Assembly (NCBI GenBank): GCA_018065895.1
Contig: JAGHSK010000001.1
Coordinates: 5,834-69,833 of the forward strand
Source of the DNA: Candidatus Cacconaster equi
Lineage (GTDB): Bacteria; Bacteroidota; Bacteroidia; Bacteroidales; UBA932
Direction: 5' to 3'
Length of the DNA: 64,000 nt
The position numbers and the translations under genes are program-made. Under the pieces are notes generated by a model. That model did not search any database. It was not told the origin of the DNA and saw only the letters and a program-made list of their open reading frames with translations. This document shows, piece by piece, positions 21,025 to 55,856 of the stretch. The number at the start of each line of letters is the position of its first letter. Within the stretch, counting starts at the first letter, position 1.

Positions 21025-21027
21025 AGA

Positions 21028-21804: not shown

Positions 21805-21824
21805 AGCGAAAGGTTTATATGCCA

Positions 21825-21832
21825 CAAAGATA
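21825..21832 (-). promoter_or_regulatory. -7 promoter box for GDPD/Fur-like/Gate-protein unit
   Basis: Minus-strand TATCTTTG, 20 nt upstream of ATG 21804. Confidence 0.4.
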
Positions 21833-21889
21833 GAAAATTTCATAAAATGTTTTTTATCTTTATGGTTCAAACGCCAATATCCTTACAAA

Positions 21890-22549
21890 ATGAAATTTTT
21901 CAAGCTGTTCACTCTTGCAACAATGGTAGCAATCACCTCATCCTGCAACTCAGGAAACGGAAACACCGCATTCTGGAATTCCCTTCTCGACAAATATGCA
22001 AAGAACCCGGAGGTAAACCAGATACTGCTCGTCAAATGCACTCAGGGATATGATGCCGAGGCTTATTTCTATGTAAAGGACGCATCGGGGAAATGGGAGC
22101 TGCAGCGCAGCAGCGACGCCCAACTCGGAAAGAACGGACTTGGAAAACAGGTCGACGGAGACATGAAGACTCCTGAAGGTGAATTCGGAATACGCTGCGC
22201 CTTCGGCATCCTGCCGAACCCCGGCACATCGATAGAATACATAGACGTTACCCCTTCCGTATATGGCTGCAGCGATGACTGCCAATATTACAACCAGATT
22301 ATCGACACATCTGCCGTGCACCACGAATGTCACGGGGAGCATATGATAGAAATTGCCCCGGACTACAACTACGGAATGTCAATAGACTACAACCACGACA
22401 ACACCGCAGGTCTGGGCAATTCAATATTTCTTCACGGAAAGGGCGCATACCCGTACACTGAGGGATGCGTTGCAATCGACGAGGACTTTATGAAAGAAAT
22501 TCTTGTCAAATCTGACAAGAATTTCAAAATATGCATCTACAACAAGTAA
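21890..22549 (+). CDS. L,D-transpeptidase-family (YkuD-like) lipoprotein
   Basis: Start set at ATG 21890 (MKFFKLFTLATMVAITSSC, lipobox); catalytic-type motif FLHGKG...YTEGCVAI. Confidence 0.7.
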   Translation: MKFFKLFTLATMVAITSSCNSGNGNTAFWNSLLDKYAKNPEVNQILLVKCTQGYDAEAYFYVKDASGKWELQRSSDAQLGKNGLGKQVDGDMKTPEGEFGIRCAFGILPNPGTSIEYIDVTPSVYGCSDDCQYYNQIIDTSAVHHECHGEHMIEIAPDYNYGMSIDYNHDNTAGLGNSIFLHGKGAYPYTEGCVAIDEDFMKEILVKSDKNFKICIYNK

Positions 22550-25513: not shown

Positions 25514-27958
25514 ATGAAGCAATTTATGACAAAATACGGCGGTTATTTTGCAATCGCGGCCCTTTTTTTAATACTGGCATACGTTTATTGCAAACCCGAA
25601 CTTTCCGGAAAGGTACTCCAGTCATCCGATGACATCAATGCCATTTCGGCCGTTCACGAAGCCACGACGCATGACAAGGCCGATGGAGAGTATGGATTCT
25701 GGAACAGTTCAATGTTCAGCGGAATGCCGAATTATCAGATTGGAGGCGGTCATTATAAATCCACCGATCTCATAGCTCCTTTCTCTAACTTCCTGCAGCG
25801 TGGTCCGAAACATCCCGCATGGATTCTGATATTCTATTTCATCAGTTTCTTCATTCTTCTAAGATCTTTCGGAATTGAAAAATGGCTCTCCGCGGTCGGT
25901 GCTGTGGCAGTGGCTCTGTCATCCTATTTCATTGTCATCATTGCCGCAGGCCACGGAGGAAAAACCATAGCAATATCGTACATAACCCTTGTGGCAGCAG
26001 GTTTCTATTTGATTTACCGGAAGAAATACGGCATAGGAGCCATCTTTACGATGTTCTTCACCTGCATAGGATTCAGTATCCATCCGCAGATGGCTTACTA
26101 TCTATTTATGATGATCGGCATCTTCTTCCTTGCTGAATTATGGATTCACCTGAAGGAGAAGAGATACAGGGACCTCATCGTAGCAACAATCATTTTCGCC
26201 GTATCGCTCGGCATAGGATTCGGAACACGCTGCTCCAACGTTTTTGCAAACAAGGAATATGCGGAGCAGACTATGCGCGGCGGCCACTCCGACCTTGTCA
26301 GGGATGGCGATGATGCCTCAAAGGTGAAAAACAACGGTCTCGACATAGAATACGCCACACAGTGGAGCTATGGCCTTGACGAAAGTTTCAGTTTCCTGAT
26401 ACCGGGGTTCAAAGGCGGTTCATCCAATTACAATGCAGGCACCAAATCACAGACATACAAAGAGATAATTTCCCACGGATATCCTCCTCGCACAGCTGCC
26501 GATTTCTGCGCCAATCTCCCGATGTACTGGGGCGACCAGCCGTTCACTGCGGGGAACGTGTATATGGGGGCCATAGTGTGTTTCCTCTTCATTCTCGGGC
26601 TGCTGATTGTCAAAGGCCCTTACAAGTGGGCGCTTCTTGCCGCAACACTTTTCTCCGTAATGCTTGCCTGGGGCAGCAATTTCATGTGGCTGACCGAACT
26701 GTTCTTCAACCACTTTCCTTTATATAACAAATTCAGGGCAGTCTCCTCAATTCTGATAGTCGCTGAAATTTCGATGCCGCTTCTGGGATTTCTGGCAGTC
26801 AAGGAAATCATGGACGGGAAATGCGACAGGCGGCAGATAGAGAAAAACATCCTCATTTCAGGAGGAATCACTGCGGGACTCTGCCTGATATTTGCCATTT
26901 TCGGAAGTTCCATCTACAGCTTCATATCTCCGTCAGACGCAATGTATGCGCAGCAGATGCCTGACTGGCTTTATGCTTCCATAGTGAACGAACGCGCAGC
27001 TCTTTTGAAAAGCGACTCCTGGAGAAGTTTCCTGTTCATTGCAGCAGCGGTCGCTCTGATGTTTGCATACAACCGACAGAAAATCAAGAGCAGATGGATG
27101 GTAGCCGTTCTGGGCGTGCTGGTGATTGCAGACATGTGGCCCGTTGACCGCAGATATTTCAACGACGACAATTTCATCAGTCCGCGTCAGAGCAACAACG
27201 TATATGCAATGCAGCCATACGAGGAGTTGATTTCAAACGATCCTGACCCTCACTTCAGGGTGATGAACCTCTGCACGAATACGTTCAATGACGGAAGAAC
27301 CTCCTACTACCTCAAGTCGGTCGGAGGATACTGCGCGGCCAAACTGAGGAGATATCAGGACCTGATTGACGAGCATCTCTCAAAGATGCATCTGCCTGTT
27401 ATCAGTATGCTCAACGCAAAATACCTGATAGTTCAGGATGAACAGGGACAGCCTGCCGCTCAGGTTAACCCTTATGCAATGGGCAATGCCTGGTTCGTCG
27501 ATTCTCTCGTAATTGCCGATACCCCAAACATTGAAAGTGATGCTCTCAACAACATCGATCTGGCAACAACTGCCGTTGTTGGCAACGATTTCAAGGATTT
27601 TGCGGAAAGTGCCGTTCAAGGACACGACGATCAAGCTCAGGTCACTCTCACGAAATTCACCCCGAGATTCATAGATTACGAGTACTCAGCCTCGAAGGAG
27701 GGTACGATCATATTCTCTGAAATATACTACCCTTACGGATGGAAAGCATCGATAGACGGCCAGCCAGCCGGACATTTCCGGGCAGACTATCTGCTCAGGG
27801 CGATGAACGTTCCGTCAGGAAGCCACAAGATACATTTCGAATTCGACCCTGACAGTGTGCGGACAGGCGACACGATAGCTACCATATGCATTCTTGTAAT
27901 GTATGCCATTATGGTTGCTCTGATTGCCGTCGCAGTTGTCAGACGCAGGAGAAGTTGA
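25514..27958 (+). CDS. YfhO-family polytopic membrane protein (GT-C-like glycosyltransferase candidate)
   Basis: 814 aa. The N-terminal ~500 aa hold many TM segments, followed by a large soluble C-terminal domain and a final TM anchor. This overall architecture is typical of YfhO-family proteins. Confidence 0.7.
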   Translation: MKQFMTKYGGYFAIAALFLILAYVYCKPELSGKVLQSSDDINAISAVHEATTHDKADGEYGFWNSSMFSGMPNYQIGGGHYKSTDLIAPFSNFLQRGPKHPAWILIFYFISFFILLRSFGIEKWLSAVGAVAVALSSYFIVIIAAGHGGKTIAISYITLVAAGFYLIYRKKYGIGAIFTMFFTCIGFSIHPQMAYYLFMMIGIFFLAELWIHLKEKRYRDLIVATIIFAVSLGIGFGTRCSNVFANKEYAEQTMRGGHSDLVRDGDDASKVKNNGLDIEYATQWSYGLDESFSFLIPGFKGGSSNYNAGTKSQTYKEIISHGYPPRTAADFCANLPMYWGDQPFTAGNVYMGAIVCFLFILGLLIVKGPYKWALLAATLFSVMLAWGSNFMWLTELFFNHFPLYNKFRAVSSILIVAEISMPLLGFLAVKEIMDGKCDRRQIEKNILISGGITAGLCLIFAIFGSSIYSFISPSDAMYAQQMPDWLYASIVNERAALLKSDSWRSFLFIAAAVALMFAYNRQKIKSRWMVAVLGVLVIADMWPVDRRYFNDDNFISPRQSNNVYAMQPYEELISNDPDPHFRVMNLCTNTFNDGRTSYYLKSVGGYCAAKLRRYQDLIDEHLSKMHLPVISMLNAKYLIVQDEQGQPAAQVNPYAMGNAWFVDSLVIADTPNIESDALNNIDLATTAVVGNDFKDFAESAVQGHDDQAQVTLTKFTPRFIDYEYSASKEGTIIFSEIYYPYGWKASIDGQPAGHFRADYLLRAMNVPSGSHKIHFEFDPDSVRTGDTIATICILVMYAIMVALIAVAVVRRRRS

Positions 27959-27976
27959 TTCAATACATCAGGTATC

Positions 27977-28753
27977 ATGTCCAAGATTTCAATAATCACT
28001 CCGGTTTACAATGTCAGCGGGTATATTGGCGCCTGCCTGGAGAGTATTGCCGCACAAACTCTAAGCGGAATCGAAGTCGTGCTCGTAGATGATCACGGCA
28101 GTGACGGCAGTGTACATAATGCCAAGGATTTCGCAGAAAAACACCCTGAAATTGAGTGGAAATTCACGAAGACGCCTCTCAACAGCGGTCCCGGAGCGGC
28201 GCGTAACTACGGATTGACCGTGGCGGCAGGCGAGTATATTTGTTTCGTGGACGCAGATGACTGGATTGAACCGACATTCTGCGAAAAGCTGTACAACACG
28301 GCAAAATCCTCCAATGCAGATATGGCATGCTGCGACATATTCTTCGGTGCCCAGGTACGCAGGAACCCTTCCACAAATAACAAGAAGTTCTTCCTGCGTC
28401 ACTTCGTATCATATTTCACCACGTTCATCTACCGGAGAACCTTCCTTAAGGAAAACGGCATCATCTTTCCTGATACTCACAGCGCGGAGGACACCTGCTT
28501 CCTCACCTGCTCACTGATATGCGCCGAAAGGATTGCCTCCGTGCGTGAACCGCTTTACCATTACGTCATCAGGCCATCATCAGTAAGTCAGAAGCCCGAC
28601 AGACAGAGAGCTTCCCAGCGCCTTGCATCATTCGAATATCTGATTGATTTTGCCAAGAAACATGGTCTGTACGAAAAATATCCTTTCGAACTTCAGCTGA
28701 TACGCTTCAAAAAAGGATGGCTGATGTCATTGAAAGACCGCTTCATAGGATGA
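27977..28753 (+). CDS. Family 2 glycosyltransferase (soluble GT-A type)
   Basis: ISIITPVYNVSGYIGACLESI...VVLVDDHGSDGS and the DxD motif FVDADDW; no C-terminal TM helices. Confidence 0.85.
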   Translation: MSKISIITPVYNVSGYIGACLESIAAQTLSGIEVVLVDDHGSDGSVHNAKDFAEKHPEIEWKFTKTPLNSGPGAARNYGLTVAAGEYICFVDADDWIEPTFCEKLYNTAKSSNADMACCDIFFGAQVRRNPSTNNKKFFLRHFVSYFTTFIYRRTFLKENGIIFPDTHSAEDTCFLTCSLICAERIASVREPLYHYVIRPSSVSQKPDRQRASQRLASFEYLIDFAKKHGLYEKYPFELQLIRFKKGWLMSLKDRFIG

Positions 28754-29553
28754 CACCACGCATAAAGATATTCACACGCTCGTTTGACCTGCGCCTCTAT
28801 CGGCTTTCAAAAGGACTATATGAAGGCTTGGAGTGGGAAGGGATGAAAATTCCCTGCGTAAGGCTTACGGACCAGAGCGCAGACGGCTATTTCTTTACGA
28901 TGCTTCGCGATACGGAGTGTGACATCGCCATAAATATTGACGAAGACGCATTCATCACAAATCCGCAGCCTGTAATTGATCTCATAAAAACAGTCATTGA
29001 CGGAGGATATGCCAACGCTGGAGCATCAGACGGCGACAGCGCCACAACAGGCAGGAACAAAATAGTCACGAATCCATTCTTCAATATATTCAATCTCGAC
29101 CTGATACGGAGCAAATTCAACAAATCGCTGATGATACGCGAATTGAACGACGCCGAGCCATACTATCCGTTTTTCAGATGGATGGCATCCGAGTTCAAAA
29201 CATTGTATCTGCCCTGCGTACGCCACAAAGATGGAATCACAACCATTCTGCTCGACGAAAAAGGGAGAGAAATATGCCTCCACACCTGGTTCTCCAGATT
29301 CTATTCGATGCCTTCGTGGATCGTGCGCAAAATCGAACCGACTCAGGGAATGCAGAAGGCGCGCATCGACGCCATAATTCGTGAAGCCTACGAAAAAGCG
29401 GAGTGCGCAATCCCCGAATTCGGTCTATCCGACAAAGCGGCTTTCGCCGCCAACAAAGTTGTCCGTTGGATGATAAAAATCCCTCAGCGCGTATCACGCT
29501 GGCCATACAAGATCAAACGGAAGATTCTCAGGAGCAAAAGCCAGAATCGCTGA
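28750..29553 (+). CDS. Hypothetical protein, possible unclassified glycosyltransferase-like enzyme
   Basis: Start set at ATG 28750, which forms an ATGA overlap with the GT2 stop. Acidic INIDEDAF segment; no family recognised. Confidence 0.45.
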   Translation: MTPRIKIFTRSFDLRLYRLSKGLYEGLEWEGMKIPCVRLTDQSADGYFFTMLRDTECDIAINIDEDAFITNPQPVIDLIKTVIDGGYANAGASDGDSATTGRNKIVTNPFFNIFNLDLIRSKFNKSLMIRELNDAEPYYPFFRWMASEFKTLYLPCVRHKDGITTILLDEKGREICLHTWFSRFYSMPSWIVRKIEPTQGMQKARIDAIIREAYEKAECAIPEFGLSDKAAFAANKVVRWMIKIPQRVSRWPYKIKRKILRSKSQNR

Positions 29554-30577
29554 TAACCTGTTCTATGCGGTTGGCATAGGTATGATTTCTCATCGTTGTT
29601 ACGTGAGCCCTTGATGCCGCTTCCGATTTATCTGAAGCAAGGGCCTCCCGTATCCTTTCAACAAGTTCATCAGCATCTGCGTAAAGTTCCACATCACCGT
29701 CAGGAAAAATGGTTCTGACATAAGGATTGGCATCACAGATCTGATAGGCCCCGCTGCCGCAAATCTCAAAGACGCGAGGATTCGCGCCGTCCTTCTGATC
29801 ATCCCGGTGGATATTCAGCACTATCCTTGCTCTGTTGTAGAAGGCATTCACGGCTGAAGCAGGAACGTTTCCGTTGGTATAGACATCCCTGTGTTCGCGC
29901 AGCAACCACTTCAGAGGATTCTTGTACCACGGCTTGTATTTGCCGATAATGAGAATTCTATTATGAGGAAACTCCTCAACCACCCTCTTGAGCAAAGCCT
30001 GACGATTGGGATAATAATACAGGTCGCCTACAAAAAGAATGTCAATATCCTTTTTCTGAGGCACGGGATAATACAACTCCGTATCGCAAGCCTGCGGCAG
30101 GAACGACGCCTCCATACCGGAGCGATTCAATTCAGCCACATCCCTGCGGTCGAAACTGTACAGACGGTCACAATGCCCTGCTATGTCACGGCACGACGAC
30201 ATCTTTGACAGATTGTCGAAAAGCCAGAGGGCCACTTTTGCTTTTGAGCGGAAATGCTCCAAAGTGTCAGGATGAAGGATGTCTCCATTCATTATAAAGA
30301 CCAAGTCAGGTGCCTCCGTATCGAAAATGGCGACTGCCTTTGCGTTGAAGGATTTTTCGCTTTCATTCCGAAGTTTTTTGCGGCAGGAGCTGCATCCCAG
30401 TTTGTAGCGCACCTTCATTGCTGCCGTATAAGGGTCTATCGGATTGTCGTACCCGATTACAGTACAGTCCCATCCCAGTCCAAGAAATGCCTTCGATACG
30501 GCATTCAGAAAATTGTAATAATTGGGACCTATTACCAGAGCCTTGTGCAGATGTTTCATTTTTCCGGTTGATTCCAT
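29528..30577 (-). CDS. CgeB-like glycosyltransferase-family protein (DUF3880 plus GT1-like C-terminal domain)
   Basis: The C-terminal LNIHRDDQKDGANPRVFEICGSGAYQICD resembles the CgeB/Glyco_trans_1_2 signature. Its 3' end overlaps the convergent gene by 26 nt. Confidence 0.6.
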   Translation of the reverse strand: MESTGKMKHLHKALVIGPNYYNFLNAVSKAFLGLGWDCTVIGYDNPIDPYTAAMKVRYKLGCSSCRKKLRNESEKSFNAKAVAIFDTEAPDLVFIMNGDILHPDTLEHFRSKAKVALWLFDNLSKMSSCRDIAGHCDRLYSFDRRDVAELNRSGMEASFLPQACDTELYYPVPQKKDIDILFVGDLYYYPNRQALLKRVVEEFPHNRILIIGKYKPWYKNPLKWLLREHRDVYTNGNVPASAVNAFYNRARIVLNIHRDDQKDGANPRVFEICGSGAYQICDANPYVRTIFPDGDVELYADADELVERIREALASDKSEAASRAHVTTMRNHTYANRIEQVISDSGFCS

Positions 30578-30581
30578 ACCA

Positions 30582-32129
30582 TCAGGCCCTCCTGCCGAAT
30601 TTTTCTTTAATCACCTTCACTGCGCCGGCTCTTTCCGATCCGGACATACCGAGGAAATATATTGATACCGCAGTCATCACAACAGATGCCGCCGATACCA
30701 CGAAGAAACGCATTGTTCCGTCAGGAAGAGAGATCTCCAGCAACAAAGGGACCAATGCCGACGCCACGGACACTTTCAGAACGGGAGCTATGACTCCAGA
30801 GAGATAGCTGCCAGTCGAAAGGCCCACCGCATTCCGAACATAGAGCACCCGCACGGCCAGAGCCACGAGGCACAATATGATGGTGACATAGTATATGCTT
30901 TCAGGTGCAAAGTGCAGCTTGAAGAGCAGATATCCCACAGGAAGCACCGAAAGGGTAATCAGTCCGGTGGCAACCTGGTAGTTGCGGATATCGCCATGAG
31001 CCTGCATCACCGTATTGAGCGGGCTCTCCAGCACTATTATCAAGGAATTGACGAGAGCCAGACGGGCGAACAGCGTCGTGTGCTCCGGAACATCCTTCAA
31101 CCAGACATCCAGTATGAAAGGCATCTCGAAAAGGAATGGAAGCGCTACGATAAGCATCAAGTAGTATGCGAAACGCGATGTCTGATTGACCAGTTTCAGC
31201 GTCCCCTTCACGTCCCCTGACGAATAGGACTTGAGCAGCTGAGGATAGAATGCCGTGATGAAATTCTCAACAAACTGACGGAGAGTCGCGAACACTTTGT
31301 AGGCCATTCCGCGGGCGGCATTGATTACCGGTCCGAAGAATATGTTGAGCAATATGTTGACTCCCTGATTCTGGCATACGAGAGAGGCGGAGCCGAACAT
31401 ACTCCATCCTGCGAATGAGAAGAGCTTTGCAAACTGCGTCTTTTCGAAATAGAACCTGTAGCGGCACTCCTTGTAGAATATGGTGCAGTATGCCACGTAA
31501 AAGAGCGTCACCACTATGCTGACACACATCATCAGCACTGAATAGAGAATAAGCTTGTCACTGCCGGTCCTGAGCAGCATCAATGCTACGGCCAGGTTGC
31601 CGCACGCCTCGAACACGCTCACGTAGGCGAACACCTTCATCTTCTCGCGGATAGTGACCATCGCCATATAAGGAGTGCGCAGTATCACGAAGACAACCGA
31701 CACTATGCTGCACTGGAACACCCATCTGGCAGCCGCCATCCTGCCGGCAACCTTTATCTTTCTATAGAGCAGCCACAGGCCCACCGTTTCGGAGAGAACC
31801 ACAGCCAGCAGAGCTATTAAAATGAATACGAAGAGACAGAGGTTGAAAGTACGGTGAAGCCCCTCATAGTCCTCCCTGCCAAGTTCGTATGCATAGAACC
31901 TGTTGCAGGCACTGGCCATCGCTCCATTGATAAAGGCCATCATCATCACGATTCCGCCCACTGCATTGTAAATGCCGAAGTCCACCTCCCCCAAAGCATC
32001 CAGAACTATCCTGGATGTGTAGAGGCTGACAAGCATCACCACTGCCATACGCACGTAGAGCAGCATTGCATTCTTCGCTATCCTTCTCTGGTCAATGACT
32101 GTCATACGGGTAAATTTCGATGTTGACAT
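30582..32129 (-). CDS. wzx: Wzx-type oligosaccharide flippase (polysaccharide biosynthesis protein, MOP superfamily)
   Basis: 515 aa; about 12-14 TM segments; N-terminal RIAKNAMLLYVRM motif. The start could be the ATG at 32105. Confidence 0.8.
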   Translation of the reverse strand: MSTSKFTRMTVIDQRRIAKNAMLLYVRMAVVMLVSLYTSRIVLDALGEVDFGIYNAVGGIVMMMAFINGAMASACNRFYAYELGREDYEGLHRTFNLCLFVFILIALLAVVLSETVGLWLLYRKIKVAGRMAAARWVFQCSIVSVVFVILRTPYMAMVTIREKMKVFAYVSVFEACGNLAVALMLLRTGSDKLILYSVLMMCVSIVVTLFYVAYCTIFYKECRYRFYFEKTQFAKLFSFAGWSMFGSASLVCQNQGVNILLNIFFGPVINAARGMAYKVFATLRQFVENFITAFYPQLLKSYSSGDVKGTLKLVNQTSRFAYYLMLIVALPFLFEMPFILDVWLKDVPEHTTLFARLALVNSLIIVLESPLNTVMQAHGDIRNYQVATGLITLSVLPVGYLLFKLHFAPESIYYVTIILCLVALAVRVLYVRNAVGLSTGSYLSGVIAPVLKVSVASALVPLLLEISLPDGTMRFFVVSAASVVMTAVSIYFLGMSGSERAGAVKVIKEKFGRRA

Positions 32130-32907
32130 TGTGCCCTCCGCGCTGTTCCTCAGGCGGGAGTTTCATATAATCGCCGAACAAAGCCTTAAGATATCCATCA
32201 TAGTTGCCCGGAGCGAAGAATCGATGTCCCTCAAAATCAAGCTCGGTCAGAGGGAAGACGTGACTCAGGTAGCGCGGATTGCGGAACCCCACGTAATATC
32301 GGCCTATCATATCGCTGCGCGTAAGATTGGCATATAGCCTGAAAATTCCTGTAAAAGCCCATACGAATGGCCAGAGCAGATATGCGGCAACCTTCGTCCA
32401 GATACGGCGGAAGCGGGAGCTGTACATTGCCTCGCCGTAGTTGTGCATCGTTCTGGTGACCCGTCCATAAAGCAGATATACCAGATGCTGCACCTTCATC
32501 GAAGGAATTCTCTCAAGCAGCACCACATCCAGGAAAAGGCCTCTGTACTTCTGTTTTCTCTCCAAGGGAAGGTCGAAAAGAGAGTATCTGTCCCTTATGC
32601 GCGGCGACATTTCAAAATGGTAAGGATCAGTAGTCCAGTCCTGATATGCGAATCGTTCAGGCAGACATTCCAGCATTGCCTGTTTGAACCGCCTGTAATC
32701 TTTCTTGTTTATGCAGATGTCAAGGTCGTCGTCCCACGGAATAAAACCGCCGTGCCGTACTGCGCCGAGAAGGGTTCCGGCATCCATCCAATAGTCAATC
32801 CCCCGCTCACGGCATATTTTATCGACCTCAACGAGTATGTCGAGCATTCTCAGCTGGGCCTCTCTGAGAACCGAGCCATCGGGATTGTATGGATTGAGCT
32901 CTGTCAT
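32092..32907 (-). CDS. licD: LicD-family phosphotransferase (transfers phospho-alcohol head groups from CDP donors to glycans)
   Basis: LLGAVRHGGFIPWDDDLDI motif; 271 aa. Confidence 0.85.
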   Translation of the reverse strand: MTELNPYNPDGSVLREAQLRMLDILVEVDKICRERGIDYWMDAGTLLGAVRHGGFIPWDDDLDICINKKDYRRFKQAMLECLPERFAYQDWTTDPYHFEMSPRIRDRYSLFDLPLERKQKYRGLFLDVVLLERIPSMKVQHLVYLLYGRVTRTMHNYGEAMYSSRFRRIWTKVAAYLLWPFVWAFTGIFRLYANLTRSDMIGRYYVGFRNPRYLSHVFPLTELDFEGHRFFAPGNYDGYLKALFGDYMKLPPEEQRGGHNVNIEIYPYDSH

Positions 32908-33851
32908 ACCCAGAATTTGGATGTCACATTCTCAAAGTCAGTCTCCCCCACTTCCGCTTCGATCATATCATAGATTCGTGATGCGAAAAGAACATCGTGA
33001 AGGCCGATGCCTATGTTGTAACTCAGGATACGTTGCGAATTGTCCGTGCGCCCCTCACATTTTCCGGCTAGGACATTCCCGATTTCACCGAAAGATCTGA
33101 ACCTGTCGAAATATTTGAAACCGCATACATGCGAACGGTCGTCAGCGAAAACCTTGTCAAAAAAGAGGTCGCAATTCTGAAAGCCCTTTGTATGAACCGG
33201 CACGACAAGAATGCCTTCAGGGAATACCCGGTCATCAGGACAGATAAGACTCCCGGCGTCAGTCACACAACTGAAAAGAACCGTGGATGTTCCTACCAGT
33301 GCCTCAACATTATCCACATATTCGAAACAAACGTTATCGTAGTCTGAGAACCTTTGAGAGAAGAGCTCTGCCTGATCTTTATATCTGAGCAGTCGAACCT
33401 TGTGATTCATATTCCTTTCAGACTCCAGAAGACACAGTAAAGTGGCCCTTGCAGTGTTTCCAAGCCCTATGAACGAGTAGACCTGTTCTCCTGACAAGCG
33501 GAAGGTCTGTGCAGCAAGCGCTGCGACGGCCCCGGTACGCATCATTGTAATCCAGTTTGCATCCATTATTGCAAGCAACCTGCCTGTAAGGGAATCATAA
33601 AGCAGTTCAACCGCATCAATTGACGGCACTGCACCAGCCACTCTGCGAACCTCCTTGACACCGAACCTATGGAATTCATCCGGAAGAAGACAGGGCATTG
33701 TATTGAAGAAATCGTTTCCCTGAGGATGAATGCTGGTTTTTGCGGGCAACACAGAACGATCCTTCATCAGAAAAGACTCCCTAACCCACTCAACGCAAGT
33801 TGCAGGGCCTATCCGAAGTGACTTTATATCATTGAATCCCAGTAATTTCAT
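32904..33851 (-). CDS. Ornithine cyclodeaminase / mu-crystallin-family NAD(P)-dependent enzyme
   Basis: MRTGAVAALAAQ substrate-loop motif and GLGNTARATL dinucleotide fold; 315 aa; 4-nt overlap with licD. Confidence 0.7.
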   Translation of the reverse strand: MKLLGFNDIKSLRIGPATCVEWVRESFLMKDRSVLPAKTSIHPQGNDFFNTMPCLLPDEFHRFGVKEVRRVAGAVPSIDAVELLYDSLTGRLLAIMDANWITMMRTGAVAALAAQTFRLSGEQVYSFIGLGNTARATLLCLLESERNMNHKVRLLRYKDQAELFSQRFSDYDNVCFEYVDNVEALVGTSTVLFSCVTDAGSLICPDDRVFPEGILVVPVHTKGFQNCDLFFDKVFADDRSHVCGFKYFDRFRSFGEIGNVLAGKCEGRTDNSQRILSYNIGIGLHDVLFASRIYDMIEAEVGETDFENVTSKFWV

Positions 33852-35655
33852 ACTCTTTCAACACATTTATCAAACGAGCATTGGCTCCCCTGTCGCGCAC
33901 CGCAATGCGGATAAAGTCCTTTCCACCGAACCCCTTCTTTCCACTACAATCCTTGATAAGGATATCGTGTTCGTTCAGAAGCCTTTCCGTCAATTCTGAC
34001 GAAGAAATCCCAAGAGTCCGACAAAGAAAATAATTTGCCTGACTCGGAATCACCCTCAAAAACGGCACAGTGCTCAGGTCTTCGAAGAAAATGGTTCTCT
34101 CCTGCAGAAATTTTTCGCGTGCATAACGATAATCCACCTCATATTTGTTGAATATCTGCATGAAAAACTCCGCAAAGGAGTTGATGTTCCATATAGGGAC
34201 ATCCGTTTTCAATGAAGCAATCAGGTTCCTGTCAGCAGACGCAAGCAATCCGAGCCTGAGTCCCGGCACTCCGTACGATTTGGAGATACTTTTTATGACC
34301 ACCATCCCGGGATAGCGCTCCAATGATTCATTTTTCAACATTGACTGTGTCAACCCGTCCTGCGCGAAATCCAGGAAAGATTCATCGAGAATCAGCCTGA
34401 TGCCGTTGCTTTTGCACCACTCCGCCACACTCTCCACATCCTCTGTCGGAAGCAGGTTGCCGGACGGGTTGTCAGGATTGACAAGAAGCAGATTTTCGAC
34501 CTTGTGCGATCCGAAATACGATATGATCTCTTCTGCATTGTATCTGAAATCACTGTCAGCAGGAACGAATTCCACCACACGCGAAGAATCCATCCTGTTA
34601 GGATACTCCTCAAATGTAGGGAATACCACGCCGAGTTTTCCTGTGAGTCTGTCGATGAGGCTCTTTATCAATTCCGCAGCGCCGTTGCCTGGCAGAATAT
34701 ACTCTTCCCTGACTCCGAAACACTTGCTTGCAAGGAGACAGTTCATTTTCATTCCGGAAGGATATTGAGTCAGAAGGGTGTCGAAATTGGAGCGTAATTC
34801 ATCCTTCATTCTTGACGAAGGAAAATACGGATTGACGAGATAGCAGAAATCAAGCATCTTCGGGAAACGCCAGTAGCCCCCGTAGCGTTTCTGGTACTTT
34901 TCAAGCCTTTCCCTGCCTTGAGCGAAAATTGAAGAGGCAACGTCTATGTCGGCCTTGTCATCGGATTCGTACCACTTTGCGCCGTCAACAGGCAGAGCCT
35001 TCAAGTCGGAGGTGTTCAGCATACATATCACGCGCAGAACCTGTTCGTAATACTCATTGTTGCCAAGAGCCTTGCAATAGGCATCCAGGAAAGGCACATA
35101 CTTGTGCGTAGAGAATTCGCGGCTGAACTTGTATACATTTACGGTCTTGTAATAGGAATCCGTCTGGGAATATTTGAATGCCTTCTTTGGGATAAAGTTC
35201 ACTATGTTGCTGTCATCGTCAATCTGCACCATCGTCCCATCCATCCAAGTCTGATACTTGGCCACCAGTGCAATGTTCGGGTAAGGATTGCCGACAATCA
35301 TAGGCAGTATCGAATCGTCAAGCATAAGATCCGACTCTATGAGAAGTGTATCGTCTTCAGTCAGCTGCTTCTTGGCAAGGGCAAGCGAATAGATATTGTT
35401 GGTCCTTTCATAGACCGGATTCTCAACATATTCAACCTTCAGTCCCCCAAGGTCAAGAGATTTGATATGTTCAGTGAGATTCTCAGCCTGATAGCCGACC
35501 ACTATGACCACCCTTTTGAGGTTCAGCTCACCCAACTGACGGAGCAATCTGTCAATCATAGGAACGCCATTGACGGGAACCATACATTTGGTGTTGTTCC
35601 TGGTGTACTCACCAAGTCTCCTTCCCATTCCGGCAGCCAGAATAATCGCCTGCAT
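33829..35655 (-). CDS. Bifunctional protein: N-terminal LicC-like cytidylyltransferase fused to a C-terminal CobD/HisC-type class I/II PLP enzyme
   Basis: N-terminal domain: MQAIILAAGMGRRLG, NNIYSL, YYEQVL (LicC-like). C-terminal domain: GNGAAELI, NPDNPSG, DESFLDF, and SISKSYGVPGLRLG carrying the PLP lysine. 608 aa; 23-nt overlap with the downstream OCD-like gene. Confidence 0.75.
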   Translation of the reverse strand: MQAIILAAGMGRRLGEYTRNNTKCMVPVNGVPMIDRLLRQLGELNLKRVVIVVGYQAENLTEHIKSLDLGGLKVEYVENPVYERTNNIYSLALAKKQLTEDDTLLIESDLMLDDSILPMIVGNPYPNIALVAKYQTWMDGTMVQIDDDSNIVNFIPKKAFKYSQTDSYYKTVNVYKFSREFSTHKYVPFLDAYCKALGNNEYYEQVLRVICMLNTSDLKALPVDGAKWYESDDKADIDVASSIFAQGRERLEKYQKRYGGYWRFPKMLDFCYLVNPYFPSSRMKDELRSNFDTLLTQYPSGMKMNCLLASKCFGVREEYILPGNGAAELIKSLIDRLTGKLGVVFPTFEEYPNRMDSSRVVEFVPADSDFRYNAEEIISYFGSHKVENLLLVNPDNPSGNLLPTEDVESVAEWCKSNGIRLILDESFLDFAQDGLTQSMLKNESLERYPGMVVIKSISKSYGVPGLRLGLLASADRNLIASLKTDVPIWNINSFAEFFMQIFNKYEVDYRYAREKFLQERTIFFEDLSTVPFLRVIPSQANYFLCRTLGISSSELTERLLNEHDILIKDCSGKKGFGGKDFIRIAVRDRGANARLINVLKEYEITGIQ

Positions 35656-35713: not shown

Positions 35714-36835
35714 TCATCGGAGAACCGCATCCGCCATGGCCTTCCAAGAGTACTTTTCCTTCTCGGACTTCAATCCCTGTGAAAAATCCACGGGATTTTC
35801 CGAGAACTCAACCAAAGCGTCAGCGATGGCCTTTACAGATGGTTCGACACAATAACCGGCTTTCCCGTCGGGAACCACTTCCGGCAGCCCTCCCACCCTT
35901 GTAACGAGCATAGGTCTCTCAAAATGATACGCTATCTGCGTTATACCGCTCTGAGTGGCTGACTTGTATGGCTGAACAACCATATCAGCCGCACAAAAAT
36001 GGTATTTCACCATACCGTCAGGCACGAATTCAGTGTTCCATATCAAACGGTCGTTCAAACAAAGCCTGTCCGCCAACTCGTGATATTTCTTCCCATCTCC
36101 GTAGAATTCACCGGCTATGATAAGTTTAAGATCCTTCTGTGCAGAAAGCCGCTCGTCAGCGAATGCCTCCATCAACCAGTCAAGACCCTTATAATCCCGG
36201 ATCAATCCGAAAAAGAGCAGATAACGGCACTTGTCATCAAGCCCCAGCACTCTGCAGGCCTCCCCTTTCGTCACCGTCGCCCCGAAATTATCATACAGCG
36301 GATGTGGGCTGAAAGAGCAGATTTTTTCAGGCGCAAAATCCTTCAAGTCACTTCTGACAGATTCAGACATGGCCACAAAGGAATCCATGGCATCGCAGAA
36401 ATATCGGGCAAATCGTGTATCGCCGGGACGTTTCTCATGCGGAACCAGATTATGCAGCAGTCCCACCATCTTCGTATTTCCTCCACTGCCGGACTTGGCC
36501 ACCCTTGCGACCGTTCCGAAGGCAGGAGCCATATACGGCAGCCAGAAAGCGAAAACGACATAATCAGGATGCATCTTCCTGATTTGTATGCCTGTTCTGA
36601 GCCAATTCAACGGATTTATGGAATTGAGCATTCTGACTATTTTCAGTCCGATAGGAGCGGAAGAAGTGGAATACTGGGTTTGCCCAGGAAAGAGGAATGA
36701 CGGATATTGCAACGTAAAGGTGCAGAGGATAACCTCATGTCCCTGAAGTTGGAACTCCCTTGCCAATCTCTCACTGAAAGCGGCTATCCCACCCCTATAG
36801 GGATGTGCAGGACCGACTATGACAATTTTACTCAT
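35714..36835 (-). CDS. Family 4 (GT-B) glycosyltransferase
   Basis: Start set at ATG 36835 (MSKIVIVGPAHPYRGGIA); C-terminal E-x7-E-type region (QSGITQIAYHFERPMLVTRVGGLPEVV). Confidence 0.85.
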   Translation of the reverse strand: MSKIVIVGPAHPYRGGIAAFSERLAREFQLQGHEVILCTFTLQYPSFLFPGQTQYSTSSAPIGLKIVRMLNSINPLNWLRTGIQIRKMHPDYVVFAFWLPYMAPAFGTVARVAKSGSGGNTKMVGLLHNLVPHEKRPGDTRFARYFCDAMDSFVAMSESVRSDLKDFAPEKICSFSPHPLYDNFGATVTKGEACRVLGLDDKCRYLLFFGLIRDYKGLDWLMEAFADERLSAQKDLKLIIAGEFYGDGKKYHELADRLCLNDRLIWNTEFVPDGMVKYHFCAADMVVQPYKSATQSGITQIAYHFERPMLVTRVGGLPEVVPDGKAGYCVEPSVKAIADALVEFSENPVDFSQGLKSEKEKYSWKAMADAVLR

Positions 36836-36841
36836 AACTTG

Positions 36842-36849
36842 CAAATTTA
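36842..36849 (-). promoter_or_regulatory. -7 promoter box for the GT4-to-cgeB-like glycan operon (near-leaderless)
   Basis: Minus-strand TAAATTTG, only 6 nt upstream of ATG 36835. Confidence 0.45.
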
Positions 36850-36976
36850 CCATTTTTTTAAAAAGGAAATGTATTTTTAAAATCGAAAAAACTTTCAGGT
36901 CATAACCGCACAAAAGCCTTCCCGTGCTTTGAGAATAGCCATACAGGTGCTAATTTAGCAGTATTAACATAAAAAA

Positions 36977-36985: not shown

Positions 36986-38002
36986 ATGAAAAGATTTGTG
37001 TTGATGGGGATAACCTCCATCGCGATGTCGCTTGTCGCTGCGACCGGTTGCAATTGGGACGATTCCAAGTCCGAAGCCGAAAACGGTGCAAAACTTGTTT
37101 TCGAATTTCTGCAGACAAAAGCACAGGAGACGCCTGTCGATGACTTCACCTTGAAAGTCTGCTCTCTTCAGGGAGACACCTGTTACATCGGGCGTTTCGG
37201 GGACAGACCTCAATCTCTCAACGTAAAGCCAGGTACCTATGAAGTGAGCCTCTACTCGAAGTTCGACTCCCCGGCGTTCGAAGCGCCTCAATATGGTGAC
37301 ATTGTAGAGGTCAACGTTAAAAAAAGAGAGCAGGTTACAGTTAATCTGATATGCAGGCTGATCAATTCGGGGCTCTCGTTCTCATTCAGCGATGCATTCA
37401 GGAAAGAGTACGGGAATTCCACCATACAGCTCTCTCAAGCAGGCGAAGTGCTCGAATATCCCGTTTCCCAAAGAAACGTGGCCTACTTCAATCCGGGAAG
37501 AGTGTTCCTTCTGCTGAACGGAGAAGTTGCCCTTTACAAAGATCTGGAACGCGGAGAATTACGCCATTTGAACCTGGATGCGGTTCACACCTCTTCGGAT
37601 GTGGGCTTTACGGTAAGTATTGACACCGACACACCTGTAACCGACGAAGATTTCACCTTGGAGGAACCCATATTCGGAGCCGATCAAGCCTGCCTGTTCG
37701 ACATCGGCCTGACAGCACGTGTGGAGGGAATAATTGTGGGTGCAGTGAAAAGCAGCAAGTTGATTCCGTCAGGAACGGCCGGCCTGGATGTCACCAGCAA
37801 CATATTCATAGCCACATCAGCAGATGCCGGCAACATAAAGGACGGGATGCCTGTAGAACTTACGAATTCTTTCAAGGGAGAACTGAATCTGGTGGACCAT
37901 CCGGAATTCGCGGGAAAGCGGATTGCCGTAAAAGGAACGATTCTCCCCTATTTTGGCGTAAAAGGGATAAAGAACTTGACGGAATATGAATTTATTTACT
38001 AA
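36986..38002 (+). CDS. Hypothetical lipoprotein
   Basis: Lipobox LVAATGC, beta-rich sequence, and a C-terminal ~90 aa (GMPVELTN...GKRIAVKGTILPYFGVKGIKNLTEYEF) that looks OB-fold-like. GGAGG lies 4 nt before the ATG. Confidence 0.55.
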   Translation: MKRFVLMGITSIAMSLVAATGCNWDDSKSEAENGAKLVFEFLQTKAQETPVDDFTLKVCSLQGDTCYIGRFGDRPQSLNVKPGTYEVSLYSKFDSPAFEAPQYGDIVEVNVKKREQVTVNLICRLINSGLSFSFSDAFRKEYGNSTIQLSQAGEVLEYPVSQRNVAYFNPGRVFLLLNGEVALYKDLERGELRHLNLDAVHTSSDVGFTVSIDTDTPVTDEDFTLEEPIFGADQACLFDIGLTARVEGIIVGAVKSSKLIPSGTAGLDVTSNIFIATSADAGNIKDGMPVELTNSFKGELNLVDHPEFAGKRIAVKGTILPYFGVKGIKNLTEYEFIY

Positions 38003-38027
38003 ACTTGGAAAAGATGACGTAACATCA

Positions 38028-38135
38028 ATGCGAATATGGCACAGCCGGGAGTCACCACTTCTTGTCATCTTCATCGTGGCACCTCTTTTGGGTGGCGCAT
38101 TGGCTGCAGGCGTTTGGAAATGCCTGAGCAAATAA
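38028..38135 (+). pseudogene. 35-codon ORF encoding one TM helix; possible remnant of the last helix of a MIP/aquaporin gene, or a small membrane peptide
   Basis: Translation is MRIWHSRESPLLVIFIVAPLLGGALAAGVWKCLSK. The segment IVAPLLGGALAAGVWK resembles, from memory, the C-terminal helix of AqpZ/GlpF-type channels. It is followed by an intrinsic terminator, and no NPA motif lies upstream. Confidence 0.25.
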
Positions 38136-38156
38136 CAAATCGGGATCGAAACAGGA

Positions 38157-38186
38157 AGAGGCCGGCAAAAACCGACCTCTTTTTTT
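38157..38186 (+). terminator. Rho-independent terminator
   Basis: Stem AGAGGCCGG / CCGACCTCT (8 bp plus one C-A mismatch), 6-nt loop, then a run of T residues. Confidence 0.5.
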
Positions 38187-38219
38187 CATCGCGACCCTGT
38201 GTCAAACCGCCGGAAAAAT

Positions 38220-40187
38220 TCATTTTCTGCCACCGATCCTGTAACTTACGCCCAGAATTATCCGACGATTATACAGGTCATATGCATATTCTGTTGTATT
38301 TGCTCCCGATTGGGATATATCTGTTGTGACATTGTCGAACACGTCGCTGAATTCAAGATGCAGGGTCCAGTTCCCCAATCTTTTAGCAAACTTTATCTGC
38401 CCGAGAAAACAATCACCGTCCATTTCATACCGTCTTTCTATGGCACTGTTGTAGATGAACCGGCCACTGAGCATCCAGTCTCCCTCAAAATTAAAGATTG
38501 GAGTGAGCCCGACATTGAAATAATTGCAATGCTCACGTTCTTTGTTCTTTAACATTGTATTCGAAAAAAAATTCCCGGAAACAGCGAGAGTAAGGATGTT
38601 GTAGGAATATATCACCGACATATTGGCCATGACTATATTGCTGATACCGGTATTTTCATAAGTTGTGTACACACTTGTGAAAGCTTTGTCGCTTTCTTTG
38701 ACGGGATTTTCATATATGACCTGATCCCTCTCCTCAATCAAGCCATCTCCCCTTATATAGCCCCCGTTTACGTTGAATAGGATATTGTGTCCATTCCGTT
38801 GCCAGTCGAACATATATTCAAGCTTGACCGTGTGGAGGTATGCATTGGACAGGTCGGGATTGCCGATTTTCCAACGTTTCGAACTGACATCAAAATACGG
38901 GTCAGGGTAAAGCATTGCTTCTGTAGGCTGGATGGTGTTCCTGACGAGTGACAATTTCAGGGCATGATGGTCCTTCATCCGCCATATCGTATTGATTTCC
39001 CCGATAAAGTCGTGGTTATCAACGTTTTTTACGGTCTTCTCCTTCAGCATATTGAAATCACGGCCATAGTACTGATACCTGAACGTTACGTCGGTTGACC
39101 ACCGGTCGCTCCTTTGCTGGAATGTAAAATATGGAGAGAGGTATGTGGTCCTTCCCTCCAGGATATTGGTCGTCGACCGCTTGTATGAGACGTTCATTCC
39201 GGTTATCATCGACAGCAGTTTTTTGCCATCGCGTATCATCAAAGGGAATGTCATCTTGGCCTGTCCGTCAACTGCATTCTGGCGATTGGCGGAACTGCCG
39301 ATACAAGGTTTGGATTCCATACCGGCGAAAATGGTCAATGTCGAGTTAGGATTGAATTTGTGCGAGTACTCCCCTTTGGCATTGAGCAGTGTCGTCTTGT
39401 TTACTGAAAATGTCGTATCCTTATAATTTTTGATCTGCGCCCAACCTTCTCCGACAATATCCTTGCCGTCAATCTCGAAATGGTTGTTCTGAATCTGAGT
39501 GGTCTTGGAGTTTTCACAGCTTTCAACAAACCACCCCTTGAGAATATCCTTGTCGCTAATGTCGTATTTTACAATCAGATTTGCCGTCTCCTGAAAATAT
39601 TTGCCATCGCTCATCTTCTCACCCTCCCATAAATATTGAGGAGTGGTCTGCCTGAATGTCCTGTAGTCATATGGCCAGAGAGCTTCCAGGTCAGCGTGCC
39701 CGTACAACTGTAATTTCTCTTTCCCGTAATTGATGTCAGCGCTCGGCATCAGGCCCGGCTCAGAAGAGGCGTCAAGGTAAACATCCCCGCTGATGCCTTC
39801 TTCCAACTTTCTGGGAATCAGATTGATTATACCGCTATAAAAACTGTTCTGCTGAGTAGCCACGGAAGAAGTGGAAATCTCTATCTTTTCAATTTGACTC
39901 AACTTGGTCTGAAACAGGAATATGTCGCGCCCCGCTCCAACACTCTTCCCGTCATATTGTATGTCGAAATTGCTGTAAAGCTCGTCTCCGCGGGCTATAC
40001 ACTCAGGAAAGATCTGCAAAAGGTCACTGACATTGACATACCCAGGCAGACCGATCTTGTCAACATATATGATTTTTTTACCCGGAATTATTTCAACACT
40101 CTGGTTCTGGGCGGATGCAGCCACCCCGGTCAACACGATGATACATATTGACGGCAGAAGAAACAAAAATAATTTGACTGATTTCAT
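38220..40187 (-). CDS. Outer-membrane beta-barrel protein, TonB-dependent-receptor-like
   Basis: Signal peptide; plug-like N-terminal segment (VSDLLQIFPECIARG...IEISTSS); alternating beta-strand pattern to the C-terminus; 655 aa. Confidence 0.6.
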   Translation of the reverse strand: MKSVKLFLFLLPSICIIVLTGVAASAQNQSVEIIPGKKIIYVDKIGLPGYVNVSDLLQIFPECIARGDELYSNFDIQYDGKSVGAGRDIFLFQTKLSQIEKIEISTSSVATQQNSFYSGIINLIPRKLEEGISGDVYLDASSEPGLMPSADINYGKEKLQLYGHADLEALWPYDYRTFRQTTPQYLWEGEKMSDGKYFQETANLIVKYDISDKDILKGWFVESCENSKTTQIQNNHFEIDGKDIVGEGWAQIKNYKDTTFSVNKTTLLNAKGEYSHKFNPNSTLTIFAGMESKPCIGSSANRQNAVDGQAKMTFPLMIRDGKKLLSMITGMNVSYKRSTTNILEGRTTYLSPYFTFQQRSDRWSTDVTFRYQYYGRDFNMLKEKTVKNVDNHDFIGEINTIWRMKDHHALKLSLVRNTIQPTEAMLYPDPYFDVSSKRWKIGNPDLSNAYLHTVKLEYMFDWQRNGHNILFNVNGGYIRGDGLIEERDQVIYENPVKESDKAFTSVYTTYENTGISNIVMANMSVIYSYNILTLAVSGNFFSNTMLKNKEREHCNYFNVGLTPIFNFEGDWMLSGRFIYNSAIERRYEMDGDCFLGQIKFAKRLGNWTLHLEFSDVFDNVTTDISQSGANTTEYAYDLYNRRIILGVSYRIGGRK

Positions 40188-55751: not shown

Positions 55752-55830
55752 ATAAAAAAATGCCACCAATCCTCCCTCAAAATACCCAATTGCACAGGCA
55801 AATAAATGCAGGGAATTCTGGATTTTTCAC

Positions 55831-55838: not shown

Positions 55839-55856
55839 TCAGATAATAGAAGAGGC

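Follow-up and report, generated by a model that had tools for sequence, protein, structure and literature searches.

The window analysed here comprises 64,000 nucleotides (nt) of contig JAGHSK010000001.1 from the horse-gut Bacteroidales bacterium Candidatus Cacconaster equi, and the subject of this report is a set of three overlapping genes on its minus strand. In the order of transcription these encode a fusion of a LicC-like cytidylyltransferase with a CobD-like pyridoxal phosphate (PLP) enzyme (33829-35655, minus strand, 608 amino acids (aa)), a protein of the ornithine cyclodeaminase (OCD)/mu-crystallin family (32904-33851, minus strand, 315 aa) and a LicD protein (32092-32907, minus strand, 271 aa). 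An earlier reading of the window, made from the letters alone and hereafter called the sequence-only reading, had described three such genes overlapping one another and licD overlapping the flippase gene wzx, and the translated open reading frames (ORFs) confirm this arrangement together with its coordinates. The end of the fusion ('...EITGIQ*') lies over the start of the OCD gene ('ATGAAATTACTG') in an overlap of 23 nt, the OCD gene and licD share the 4 nt 'ATGA', and licD and wzx overlap by 38 nt, or by 14 nt with the start chosen by the gene caller. All of the motifs quoted in that reading are found in the translations, namely MQAIILAAGMGRRLG, NNIYSL, YYEQVL, NPDNPSG, DESFLDF, SISKSYGVPGLRLG, MRTGAVAALAAQ, GLGNTARATL and LLGAVRHGGFIPWDDDLD. 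Profile searches of the trio returned NTP_transf_3 and Aminotran_1_2 for the fusion, OCD_Mu_crystall for the second protein and LicD for the third, in each case above the gathering score, and the three are therefore real genes and not chance ORFs. In public records they carry generic labels, the fusion being called 'aminotransferase class I/II-fold PLP-dependent enzyme', the second protein 'ornithine cyclodeaminase' and the third 'LicD family protein'.

The N-terminal domain of the fusion (34921..35655, minus strand, approximately residues 1-245) is of the LicC/PntC-like cytidylyltransferase type. NTP_transf_3 matches residues 3-111 (E 1.8e-13), and the NTP_transferase family was also matched. 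Comparison with the Protein Data Bank (PDB), in which the alignments cover only the first 110-157 residues, ranked pneumococcal LicC highest (1jyk, E 2e-11), followed by the cytidylyltransferase-transaminase fusion PntC-AEPT (6pd1, E 2e-7) and by sugar-1-phosphate nucleotidyltransferases (E of at least 1e-6), as would be expected from the LicC-like label of the sequence-only reading. The NNIYSL motif corresponds to 'NNFYSL' of LicC. The nucleotidyltransferase signature of the LicC/PntC class is GXG(T/S)RX4-8PK (PMC6697681). The fusion presents this signature as G9-M-G11-R-R13-(8 residues)-T22-K23, with Arg at the position of T/S and Thr at that of Pro, and residues G9, G11, R13, T22 and K23 as well as NNIYSL are invariant among 53 homologues. 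The domain is predicted to activate a phospho-alcohol or a phosphonate with cytidine triphosphate (CTP).

The remainder of the protein (33829..34920, minus strand, approximately residues 246-608) forms a CobD-like PLP domain of fold type I, matched by Aminotran_1_2 over residues 315-597 (E 5.9e-27). The top curated model was CobD (TIGR01140) with 176.6 bits, against 130 bits for HisC (TIGR01141); as the CobD score lies below its cutoff of 290.55, the domain is filed here as a CobD-like subfamily and not as a CobD equivalog. Among PDB entries the best score was to 6oux (141 bits), titled in the fold-search library 'SMUL_1544, a decarboxylase from Sulfurospirillum multivorans', followed by 3ftb, deposited as a histidinol-phosphate aminotransferase, and by CobD itself (1lc5, 115 bits), with genuine HisC structures at about 90 bits. 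The assignment to the CobD/HisC group in the sequence-only reading is thus upheld. Residues N396, D424, K459 and R467, which we take to be the standard PLP contacts (the Asn, the pyridine-nitrogen Asp, the Schiff-base Lys and the Arg), are invariant in the 53 homologues, as is R583. The last of these aligns to the phosphate-site Arg337 of CobD, and K568 is found where CobD has Arg323. The domain is predicted to be a phospho-amino-acid decarboxylase, with a transaminase as the alternative. For the protein as a whole, the fold search identified PntC-AEPT as the sole solved structure of matching two-domain architecture. The AlphaFold2 (AF2) model of the fusion has a mean predicted local distance difference test score (pLDDT) of 71.6, which falls below 50 over residues 132-224; the region 132-300 is poor and includes the part of the LicC-like domain on the side of the head group. 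Homologues of the fusion are abundant, with 8000 scored matches returned and hundreds of these at about 65% identity.

The second gene product matches PF02423 (OCD_Mu_crystall) with E 7.2e-21 and 74.9 bits against a cutoff of 24, and it carries the Rossmann motif GxGxxA as G129-L-G131-N-T-A. Its AF2 model (pLDDT 89) fits 6t3e, 4mp6 and 1omo with a template modelling (TM) score of ~0.82. The nearest folds are pyrroline-2-carboxylate (P2C) reductase, SbnB and archaeal alanine dehydrogenase (AlaDH), all at ~20% sequence identity, and the identity to all solved members of the family amounts to 15-23%. No characterised subfamily was reached among true OCD, SbnB, AlaDH, ketimine reductase and BhcD, the best NCBIfam equivalog scoring 71.6 bits against a cutoff of 417; scores so far below cutoff and such low identities leave the public name 'ornithine cyclodeaminase' unsupported. 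OCD-family enzymes reduce or oxidise a C=N bond next to a carboxylate, as found in alpha-imino acids. K66 and R105 align with Lys65 and Arg108 of archaeal AlaDH, which are presumably carboxylate binders. H220 aligns with the His in 'MDVHKE' of SbnB, at a position occupied by Asp in most family members, and the distinctive invariant residues of the subfamily include H220, N226 and K38. The SbnB structure 4m54 holds N-(1-amino-1-carboxyl-2-ethyl)-glutamate, an acyclic N-carboxyalkyl secondary amine, as substrate. The OCD-family protein is predicted to be an NAD(P)-dependent, opine-type reductive N-carboxyalkylase of the head-group amine. This role is proposed in the present analysis; the sequence-only reading had given the protein no specific function.

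The LicD protein matches PF04991 with E 2.6e-33 and 116.5 bits against a cutoff of 22.6, and the conserved DxD-containing N-terminal motif of the family is present as LLGAVRHGGFIPWDDDLD. Its score against the Mf1 equivalog is 67.7 bits, with a cutoff of 225; it is hence treated as a member of the family only. By family, LicD is predicted to move a phospho head group from a cytidine diphosphate (CDP) donor to a glycan. A precedent within the family is Mf1, which transfers phosphoethanolamine from CDP-ethanolamine (PMC11982090).

Genes for the established routes to phosphocholine and phosphonate head groups had been described as missing from the window, and the scans agree. Neither phosphoenolpyruvate (PEP) mutase nor phosphonopyruvate decarboxylase (Ppd) was detected by tblastn in the 64-kb window or in 158 of 160 related loci, and no choline-kinase/APH-type protein was found by Pfam among the main, largely non-overlapping ORFs of at least 150 aa in the window, a scan that did not extend to some 18 ORFs of lesser length, most of which overlap annotated genes or are nested within them. 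The one EamA-family transporter in the window (56582-57481, some 21 kb away) is generic and lacks a specific LicB signal. A hidden phosphocholine or phosphonate locus was rejected on the basis of these scans. The same pattern holds beyond the window, in that no kinase or transporter gene recurs among the 160 loci; PEP mutase occurs in only two of them, both of which lack the fusion.

These 160 loci are the best 80 of each of two scans, near-duplicate contigs included. The OCD subfamily gave 4739 matches and is present in at least 516 species genomes. In the first set, composed of species-level genome loci from several Bacteroidales families, tblastn placed a homologue of the fusion directly beside the OCD gene in about 70 of 80, and a LicD lay within 10 kb of it in 52 of 80. 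Flippases homologous to the Wzx of the window adjoin the module in related loci. Homologues of the window genes are also encoded by a cultured type strain, Bacteroides salyersiae DSM 18765 (L075, 8160-11684). ORF clustering of the OCD neighbours revealed no further recurring family beyond generic flippases and glycosyltransferases, and in particular no kinase and no transporter; the substrate of the PLP domain should therefore be a central metabolite.

Two of the OCD loci (L035, 6385-10954; L041, 5736-10960) provide a different context. Here the OCD, 53-57% identical to that of the window, follows a cytidylyltransferase-fused PEP mutase (EDKxxxxxNS), a Ppd and a 2-aminoethylphosphonate (AEP) transaminase, and there is no LicC-like/CobD-like fusion. 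The AEP transaminase of L041 is a 611-aa PntC-AEPT fusion. What the fusion and phosphonate contexts have in common is a primary amine located two atoms from phosphorus, as 2-aminoethyl-P(O). The two loci predict an N-modified AEP head group, which is not described in the literature found. In another two loci (L008, 6544-11152; L013, 5541-12187), the fusion is replaced by a TagD/ECT-like cytidylyltransferase of 413-416 aa, whose C-terminal ~300 aa are without assignment, together with a standalone CobD-like enzyme of 366-368 aa. These loci also hold the OCD and a protein of 383-396 aa composed of a weak LicD N-terminus and a second CTP_transf_like domain.

The reverse survey used the fusion as query in metagenomes and yielded 80 loci at 56-64% identity. 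The linkage is asymmetric, as OCD is present in 16 of the 61 fusion loci with enough flanking DNA. By ORF clustering of the 80 loci, the gene directly downstream of the fusion is an opine dehydrogenase in about 35 and an OCD in about 20; neither is found in 16, and 8 are not assessable. The opine dehydrogenase family has a length of 337 aa, begins with 'MKICICGGG...', matches PF02317 (E 6e-34) and aligns over its full length with octopine dehydrogenase (OcDH) from Pecten (3c7a, E 8e-32). The residues that align with His212, Arg324 and Asp329 of OcDH, which we take to be catalytic, are retained in the segments 'NPLLHP' and 'RYFTEDFPYGL'. The spacing between the fusion and its partner is similarly tight for both, at -4 to +37 nt for the opine dehydrogenase and -14 to +23 nt for OCD, with an outlier of 324 nt at a disrupted OCD (L152). 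Fusions with either partner are mixed within the same sequence clusters, for example 18 with OCD and 21 with opine dehydrogenase in one cluster, and 17 and 12 in another.

A direct exchange of one reductase for the other is seen in a close relative of the window locus (L165, 148-3766; proteins P0003, P0375 and P0376). A fusion 82% identical to that of the window is followed there by an in-frame opine dehydrogenase-LicD protein, so that the OCD is exactly replaced. The 90%-identity cluster of the window LicD contains P0375 and P0376, 602-aa fusions with Octopine_DH and LicD matches in Pfam, and their LicD half is 89% identical to the LicD of the window. At the DNA level, L165 and the window share 77.8% identity over the fusion gene up to position 33947 and 84.7% over licD from position 32893, and they differ only over the intervening 1.05-1.1 kb, which takes in the entire reductase gene and the final ~118 nt of the fusion gene. 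Other loci hold further combinations: a 946-aa protein of three domains, NTP-transferase, PLP enzyme and opine dehydrogenase, with motifs intact (L087, 6001-8841); a frame-disrupted OCD adjoining an intact opine dehydrogenase (L152, 6001-9740); and an intact OCD adjoining a 110-aa C-terminal relic of an opine dehydrogenase (L061, 8184-11301). The relics and the L165 swap argue that OCD and opine dehydrogenase are functionally interchangeable. The sequence-only reading had taken the OCD gene as the mark of an additional modification step, and this part is strongly supported by comparative genomics, in view of the obligate-looking partnership, the alternation with opine dehydrogenase and the exact swap; the pathway logic of that reading, as judged from sequence, is supported as well.

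Some separate observations were also made. A 546-aa protein (P0284) combines an opine dehydrogenase homologue, 80% identical to the partner in L089, with HAD-phosphatase domains, hinting that the opine dehydrogenase substrate is a phosphate ester. In two reductase-less loci (L136, 7806-9035; L144, 8043-9326), the gene after the fusion is not LicD but a TagF-like phosphotransferase of the CDP-glycerol type (Glyphos_transf), which suggests that the CDP donor is used there for a polymer or in a teichoic-acid-like manner. A gene resembling metG (methionyl-tRNA synthetase), recognised from N-terminal sequence only, immediately precedes the fusion-reductase-LicD block in L086, L094, L101, L104, L110, L119 and L157, although that of L119 is truncated and not adjacent to the fusion. 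Linkage of metG and wzx marks the general protein O-glycosylation (lfg) loci of Bacteroidetes, and in some species the head group may be carried on a protein O-glycan. For the window itself an lfg locus was rejected, the upstream gene being priA and not metG.

From these data, the three genes can be read as the head-group module of a surface glycan in which the OCD-family protein serves as an opine-type N-carboxyalkylase. The whole pathway reading rests on sequence comparison and gene context, and we give it a somewhat better than even chance of being correct. To begin, a primary amino-alcohol phosphate would be made by the CobD-like domain from a phospho-metabolite of central metabolism, most likely by decarboxylation of O-phospho-L-serine to ethanolamine phosphate. 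Rather more than half of our expectation for the product of this domain lies with ethanolamine phosphate, small and roughly equal shares lie with aminopropanol phosphate and with serinol phosphate made by transamination, and others account for the remainder. In the second step, which is the new element, the OCD would join the amine to a 2-oxo acid, in the likeliest case pyruvate, and reduce the resulting imine with NAD(P)H. This would yield an N-(1-carboxyalkyl)amino-alcohol phosphate, and most likely N-(1-carboxyethyl)ethanolamine phosphate (Cet-EtnP). Because the PLP chemistry requires a free primary amine, the OCD would have to act after the PLP step; it could do so either before or after cytidylylation. 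Judging from their families, the LicC-like domain would use CTP to form the CDP conjugate, and LicD would then place the phospho head group on a lipid-linked glycan assembled by the glycosyltransferases encoded nearby, to be flipped by Wzx.

The likeliest product corresponds to a known structure, as N-[(R)-1-carboxyethyl]ethanolamine phosphate is found as a phosphodiester substituent on O-antigens of Proteus mirabilis (PMC9630907). The survey of the gene clusters for Proteus O-antigens, with its supplements, assigns no genes to carboxyethyl-ethanolamine phosphate, and no paper in the literature searched ties an OCD-family or opine dehydrogenase to LicD, to CDP head groups or to phosphonate tailoring. 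A broader proposal follows the same lines, namely that gut and rumen Bacteroidales, numbering hundreds of species, carry on capsules and further glycans of the surface an opine-like N-(1-carboxyalkyl)-2-aminoethyl phosphate, and in some lineages its phosphonate counterpart, made by reductases of two unrelated families (OCD/mu-crystallin and octopine dehydrogenase) whose recruitment was convergent and which have been exchanged as cassettes; for this we would put the chances a little short of even. If true, it would supply the first genetic basis for Cet-EtnP, since N-carboxyalkylation of the amine by the reductase would explain how this known but genetically unassigned group could be made. It would also mean that zwitterionic phosphoethanolamine becomes a net-anionic, chiral epitope on commensal surfaces. 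Phosphocholine, phosphoethanolamine and AEP on bacterial glycans shape host recognition, including that by antibodies and pentraxins, and phospho head groups also affect phage adsorption. The proposal further predicts a new phosphonate analogue, and under it a large OCD subfamily that is now mis-annotated would be reassigned. Among Bacteroidales the module is very common, with thousands of protein clusters and the OCD type alone in the species genomes counted above, and it is listed in public annotation merely under 'aminotransferase', 'ornithine cyclodeaminase' and 'octopine dehydrogenase family'. As an example of non-orthologous displacement with visible intermediates, the reductase slot is a clear case.

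Several observations weigh against the assignment of the OCD-family protein as an N-carboxyalkylase in such a module. The best-80 sets include near-duplicates, and the counts drawn from them are accordingly not independent events. About 6 of the 80 OCD loci are solo or in non-glycan contexts. In L067 (8881-12422), an OCD 52% identical to that of the window is flanked by an alanine racemase and an amino-acid permease with no glycan locus, and this is the main context favouring an alanine-related or catabolic role. In L048 (8866-12136), the OCD is flanked by a FemAB/GNAT-like protein (Pfam) and a predicted DegT-like sugar aminotransferase, and in L012 (10001-12630) it is separated by ~240 nt from a gene in convergent orientation for a predicted DegT-like aminotransferase, the DegT-like label being drawn in both cases from N-terminal sequence only. 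Amino-sugar or aminoacyl substituents with an N-carboxyalkyl group may be indicated by these two contexts; alanopine-type groups of this sort occur on Providencia O-antigens. The phosphonate link amounts to two loci, and among the homologues retrieved none exceeds 66% identity to their OCDs. The OCD of the window is itself ~20% identical to the nearest characterised family members, and P2C reductase, SbnB, AlaDH and CRYM match its model equally (TM ~0.8), so that their activities are not discriminated. The score of the PLP domain falls short of the CobD equivalog cutoff, and the reaction type is left unfixed by family membership, given that Cj1436 decarboxylates phosphoserine to make ethanolamine phosphate for the capsule and Cj1437 transaminates dihydroxyacetone phosphate (DHAP) (PMC11800397); the placement of both enzymes in the CobD/HisC-like group is taken from the sequence-only reading. 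Lastly, L047 (7069-11754) has, between its fusion and LicD genes, a tandem of an opine dehydrogenase and an OCD that are both intact, and the two reductases may therefore not be strictly redundant.

The tandem in L047 speaks for a variant in which the OCD tailors the head group by another reaction than the opine dehydrogenase, with a different 2-oxo acid, the opposite stereochemistry or a second reduction or cyclisation, such that the two decorations are distinct. OCD-family enzymes typically act at L-configured alpha-carbons and opine dehydrogenases create D-configured centres, and the distinctive invariant residues of the OCD subfamily would be in line with a separate reaction. On the other hand, an 89%-identical LicD works with an opine dehydrogenase in L165, pointing to a similar donor; OCD-partnered and opine dehydrogenase-partnered fusions are interspersed phylogenetically; and one of the partners decays where both are present in L152 and L061. 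We regard this variant as unlikely, if deserving of some weight. Improbable, in our view, is a role for the OCD as an alanine or other amino-acid dehydrogenase that regenerates the amino donor of a PLP transaminase (converting, for example, DHAP to serinol phosphate) and leaves the amine unmodified. In a larger number of loci the slot holds an enzyme of the Octopine_DH family that has the opine dehydrogenase catalytic residues, and this family, to our knowledge, condenses amines with 2-oxo acids and includes no simple amino-acid dehydrogenases. The exact swap in a close relative and the fusion of opine dehydrogenase both to LicD and to the PLP enzyme argue in the same direction; moreover, the PLP domain is nearest to decarboxylases, for which an amino donor is unnecessary, and the window already has a glutamate dehydrogenase gene (2577-3923). 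What this role does have in its favour is that archaeal AlaDH belongs to the OCD family and is one of the nearest structures, that the subfamily adjoins aminotransferase folds of three kinds (the CobD/HisC-like fusion, the class-V AEP transaminase (AEPT) of L035 and L041 and the predicted DegT-like enzymes of L012 and L048), that AEPT uses L-alanine/pyruvate, and that alanine racemase and a permease flank the OCD of L067.

A simpler possibility would make the OCD a bystander in a locus that produces CDP-ethanolamine, CDP-aminopropanol or CDP-serinol and installs an unmodified phospho-amino-alcohol. The 16 of ~72 assessable fusion loci that have neither reductase, some with LicD or a TagF-like transferase directly downstream, indicate that fusion and transferase can be self-sufficient; however, the OCD adjoins the fusion in the great majority of genome loci across several Bacteroidales families, translational coupling is indicated by the overlap of stop and start codons, and the cassette swap and domain fusions connect the step of the reductase with both the PLP enzyme and LicD. 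A bystander thus appears very improbable. Hardly credible at all is a genuine histidinol-phosphate aminotransferase or sugar-1-phosphate nucleotidyltransferase in the fusion, with no phospho head group involved. The 130 bits of HisC on the C-terminal domain and the weak sugar-1-phosphate nucleotidyltransferase matches on the N-terminal domain are what would suggest it, and both readings fail because CobD/SMUL_1544 and LicC rank first. The HisC matches are far under their cutoffs, PntC-AEPT is the sole solved protein of the same architecture, and the consistent partner of the fusion is a LicD or TagF-like phosphotransferase.

The proposed N-carboxyalkylating module is set within a compact nine-gene glycan locus, bounded by priA and a DUF4493 lipoprotein gene and identical in four independent assemblies. 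The divergent plus-strand arm (25514..29553), an arrangement also found in four assemblies and partly in L024, consists of a YfhO-like GT-C membrane protein (25514-27958, plus strand; Pfam YfhO, with weak PgfM1/WsfD matches), a GT2 glycosyltransferase (27977-28753, plus strand; Pfam Glycos_transf_2) and a protein of 267-278 aa without an assigned family (28717-29553, plus strand). On the opposite strand, in the order of position, are a GT1-like glycosyltransferase with profile matches to Glyco_trans_1_2/DUF3880 (29528-30577, minus strand; WaaS/CpsH family), the Wzx-like flippase of MATE fold (30582-32129, minus strand; 515 aa, or 507 aa in public gene calls, with a weak MatE match of E 4e-4), licD, the OCD gene and the fusion, and finally a GT4 glycosyltransferase that is the first gene of the minus-strand operon (35714-36913, minus strand; Glyco_trans_1_4, Glycos_transf_1 and Glyco_transf_4). 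The start of the GT4 gene is later in public gene calls, at about position 36835, giving 373 aa.

Beside the glycan locus, strain-level variation is apparent: L161 (5928-7400) has an extra 490-aa BACON/DUF285/LRR gene, with an outer-membrane beta-barrel gene on one side and the DUF4493 gene on the other, which is missing at 38002-38220 of the window; in other respects this one assembly is identical. Elsewhere in the window (55806-57481), a polyprenyl-phosphate GT2 (PpgS/AglJ/ArnC/PgfS-like) is paired with the EamA transporter; the YfhO-like protein lies 28 kb from this pair, and together they resemble a system of lipid-carrier sugar donor and GT-C transferase of the Pgf/CsbB-YfhO kind. A 548-aa ORF without a Pfam match (20407-22053, plus strand) overlaps a glycerophosphodiester phosphodiesterase (GDPD) gene on the minus strand (21028-21870, E 5e-21) and is probably, at least in part, a shadow ORF.

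In comparison to known systems, the proposed module would add a reductase step, widespread in gut Bacteroidales, to a head-group pathway of the Lic/Pnt type. The N-[(R)-1-carboxyethyl]ethanolamine phosphate of Proteus is exactly of the predicted head-group class and is known there as a chemical structure only (PMC9630907). With the Lic pathway of Streptococcus pneumoniae and Haemophilus (LicA, LicB, LicC and LicD) the module shares CDP activation of the LicC type and transfer to a glycan by LicD. It differs in that the window has no choline kinase or dedicated transporter, that the precursor would come from the fused PLP enzyme and that there is an extra NAD(P) reductase. CobD and SMUL_1544 are the closest relatives of the PLP domain in sequence and structure, with the PLP residues and one phosphate-site Arg conserved; unlike CobD, the window domain is fused to a cytidylyltransferase, is below the equivalog cutoff and has Lys568 in place of Arg323.

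The proposed reaction of the OCD, in which an amine, a 2-oxo acid and NAD(P)H would give an N-(1-carboxyalkyl)amine, is that of the opine dehydrogenases, such as octopine dehydrogenase (3c7a) and CENDH (1bg6). Their usual substrate is a free amino acid, used for redox balance or metal binding, whereas the OCD is of an unrelated fold and its proposed substrate is a phospho- or phosphono-amine bound for a glycan. Staphylopine CntM is another opine dehydrogenase, and the substrate of tauropine dehydrogenase is taurine, which is isosteric with AEP. The tauropine and strombine dehydrogenases of sponges have been reported as OCD/mu-crystallin homologues. A closer parallel in fold is provided by SbnB and CmnK, of L-2,3-diaminopropionate synthesis, which resemble the OCD in fold (TM ~0.82), in an N-carboxyalkyl amine, in a PLP partner and in a His at the position of H220. 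Unlike the proposed activity of the OCD, to which its identity is ~20%, SbnB is oxidative and cleaves the amine, and it is paired with SbnA, a PLP enzyme of fold type II by which phosphate is expelled. Finally, PntC-AEPT of Treponema denticola (Tde1415, 6pd1/6pd2) likewise fuses a cytidylyltransferase to a PLP enzyme that makes its substrate, with the difference that the latter is a class-V transaminase acting on phosphonoacetaldehyde, whereas the window encodes a class-I/II, CobD-like enzyme and no PEP mutase (PMC6697681). The searched passages of its paper do not mention a reductase partner. PntC-AEPT is nonetheless the top architectural match of the fusion, and in L041 it is a PntC-AEPT that the OCD subfamily follows.

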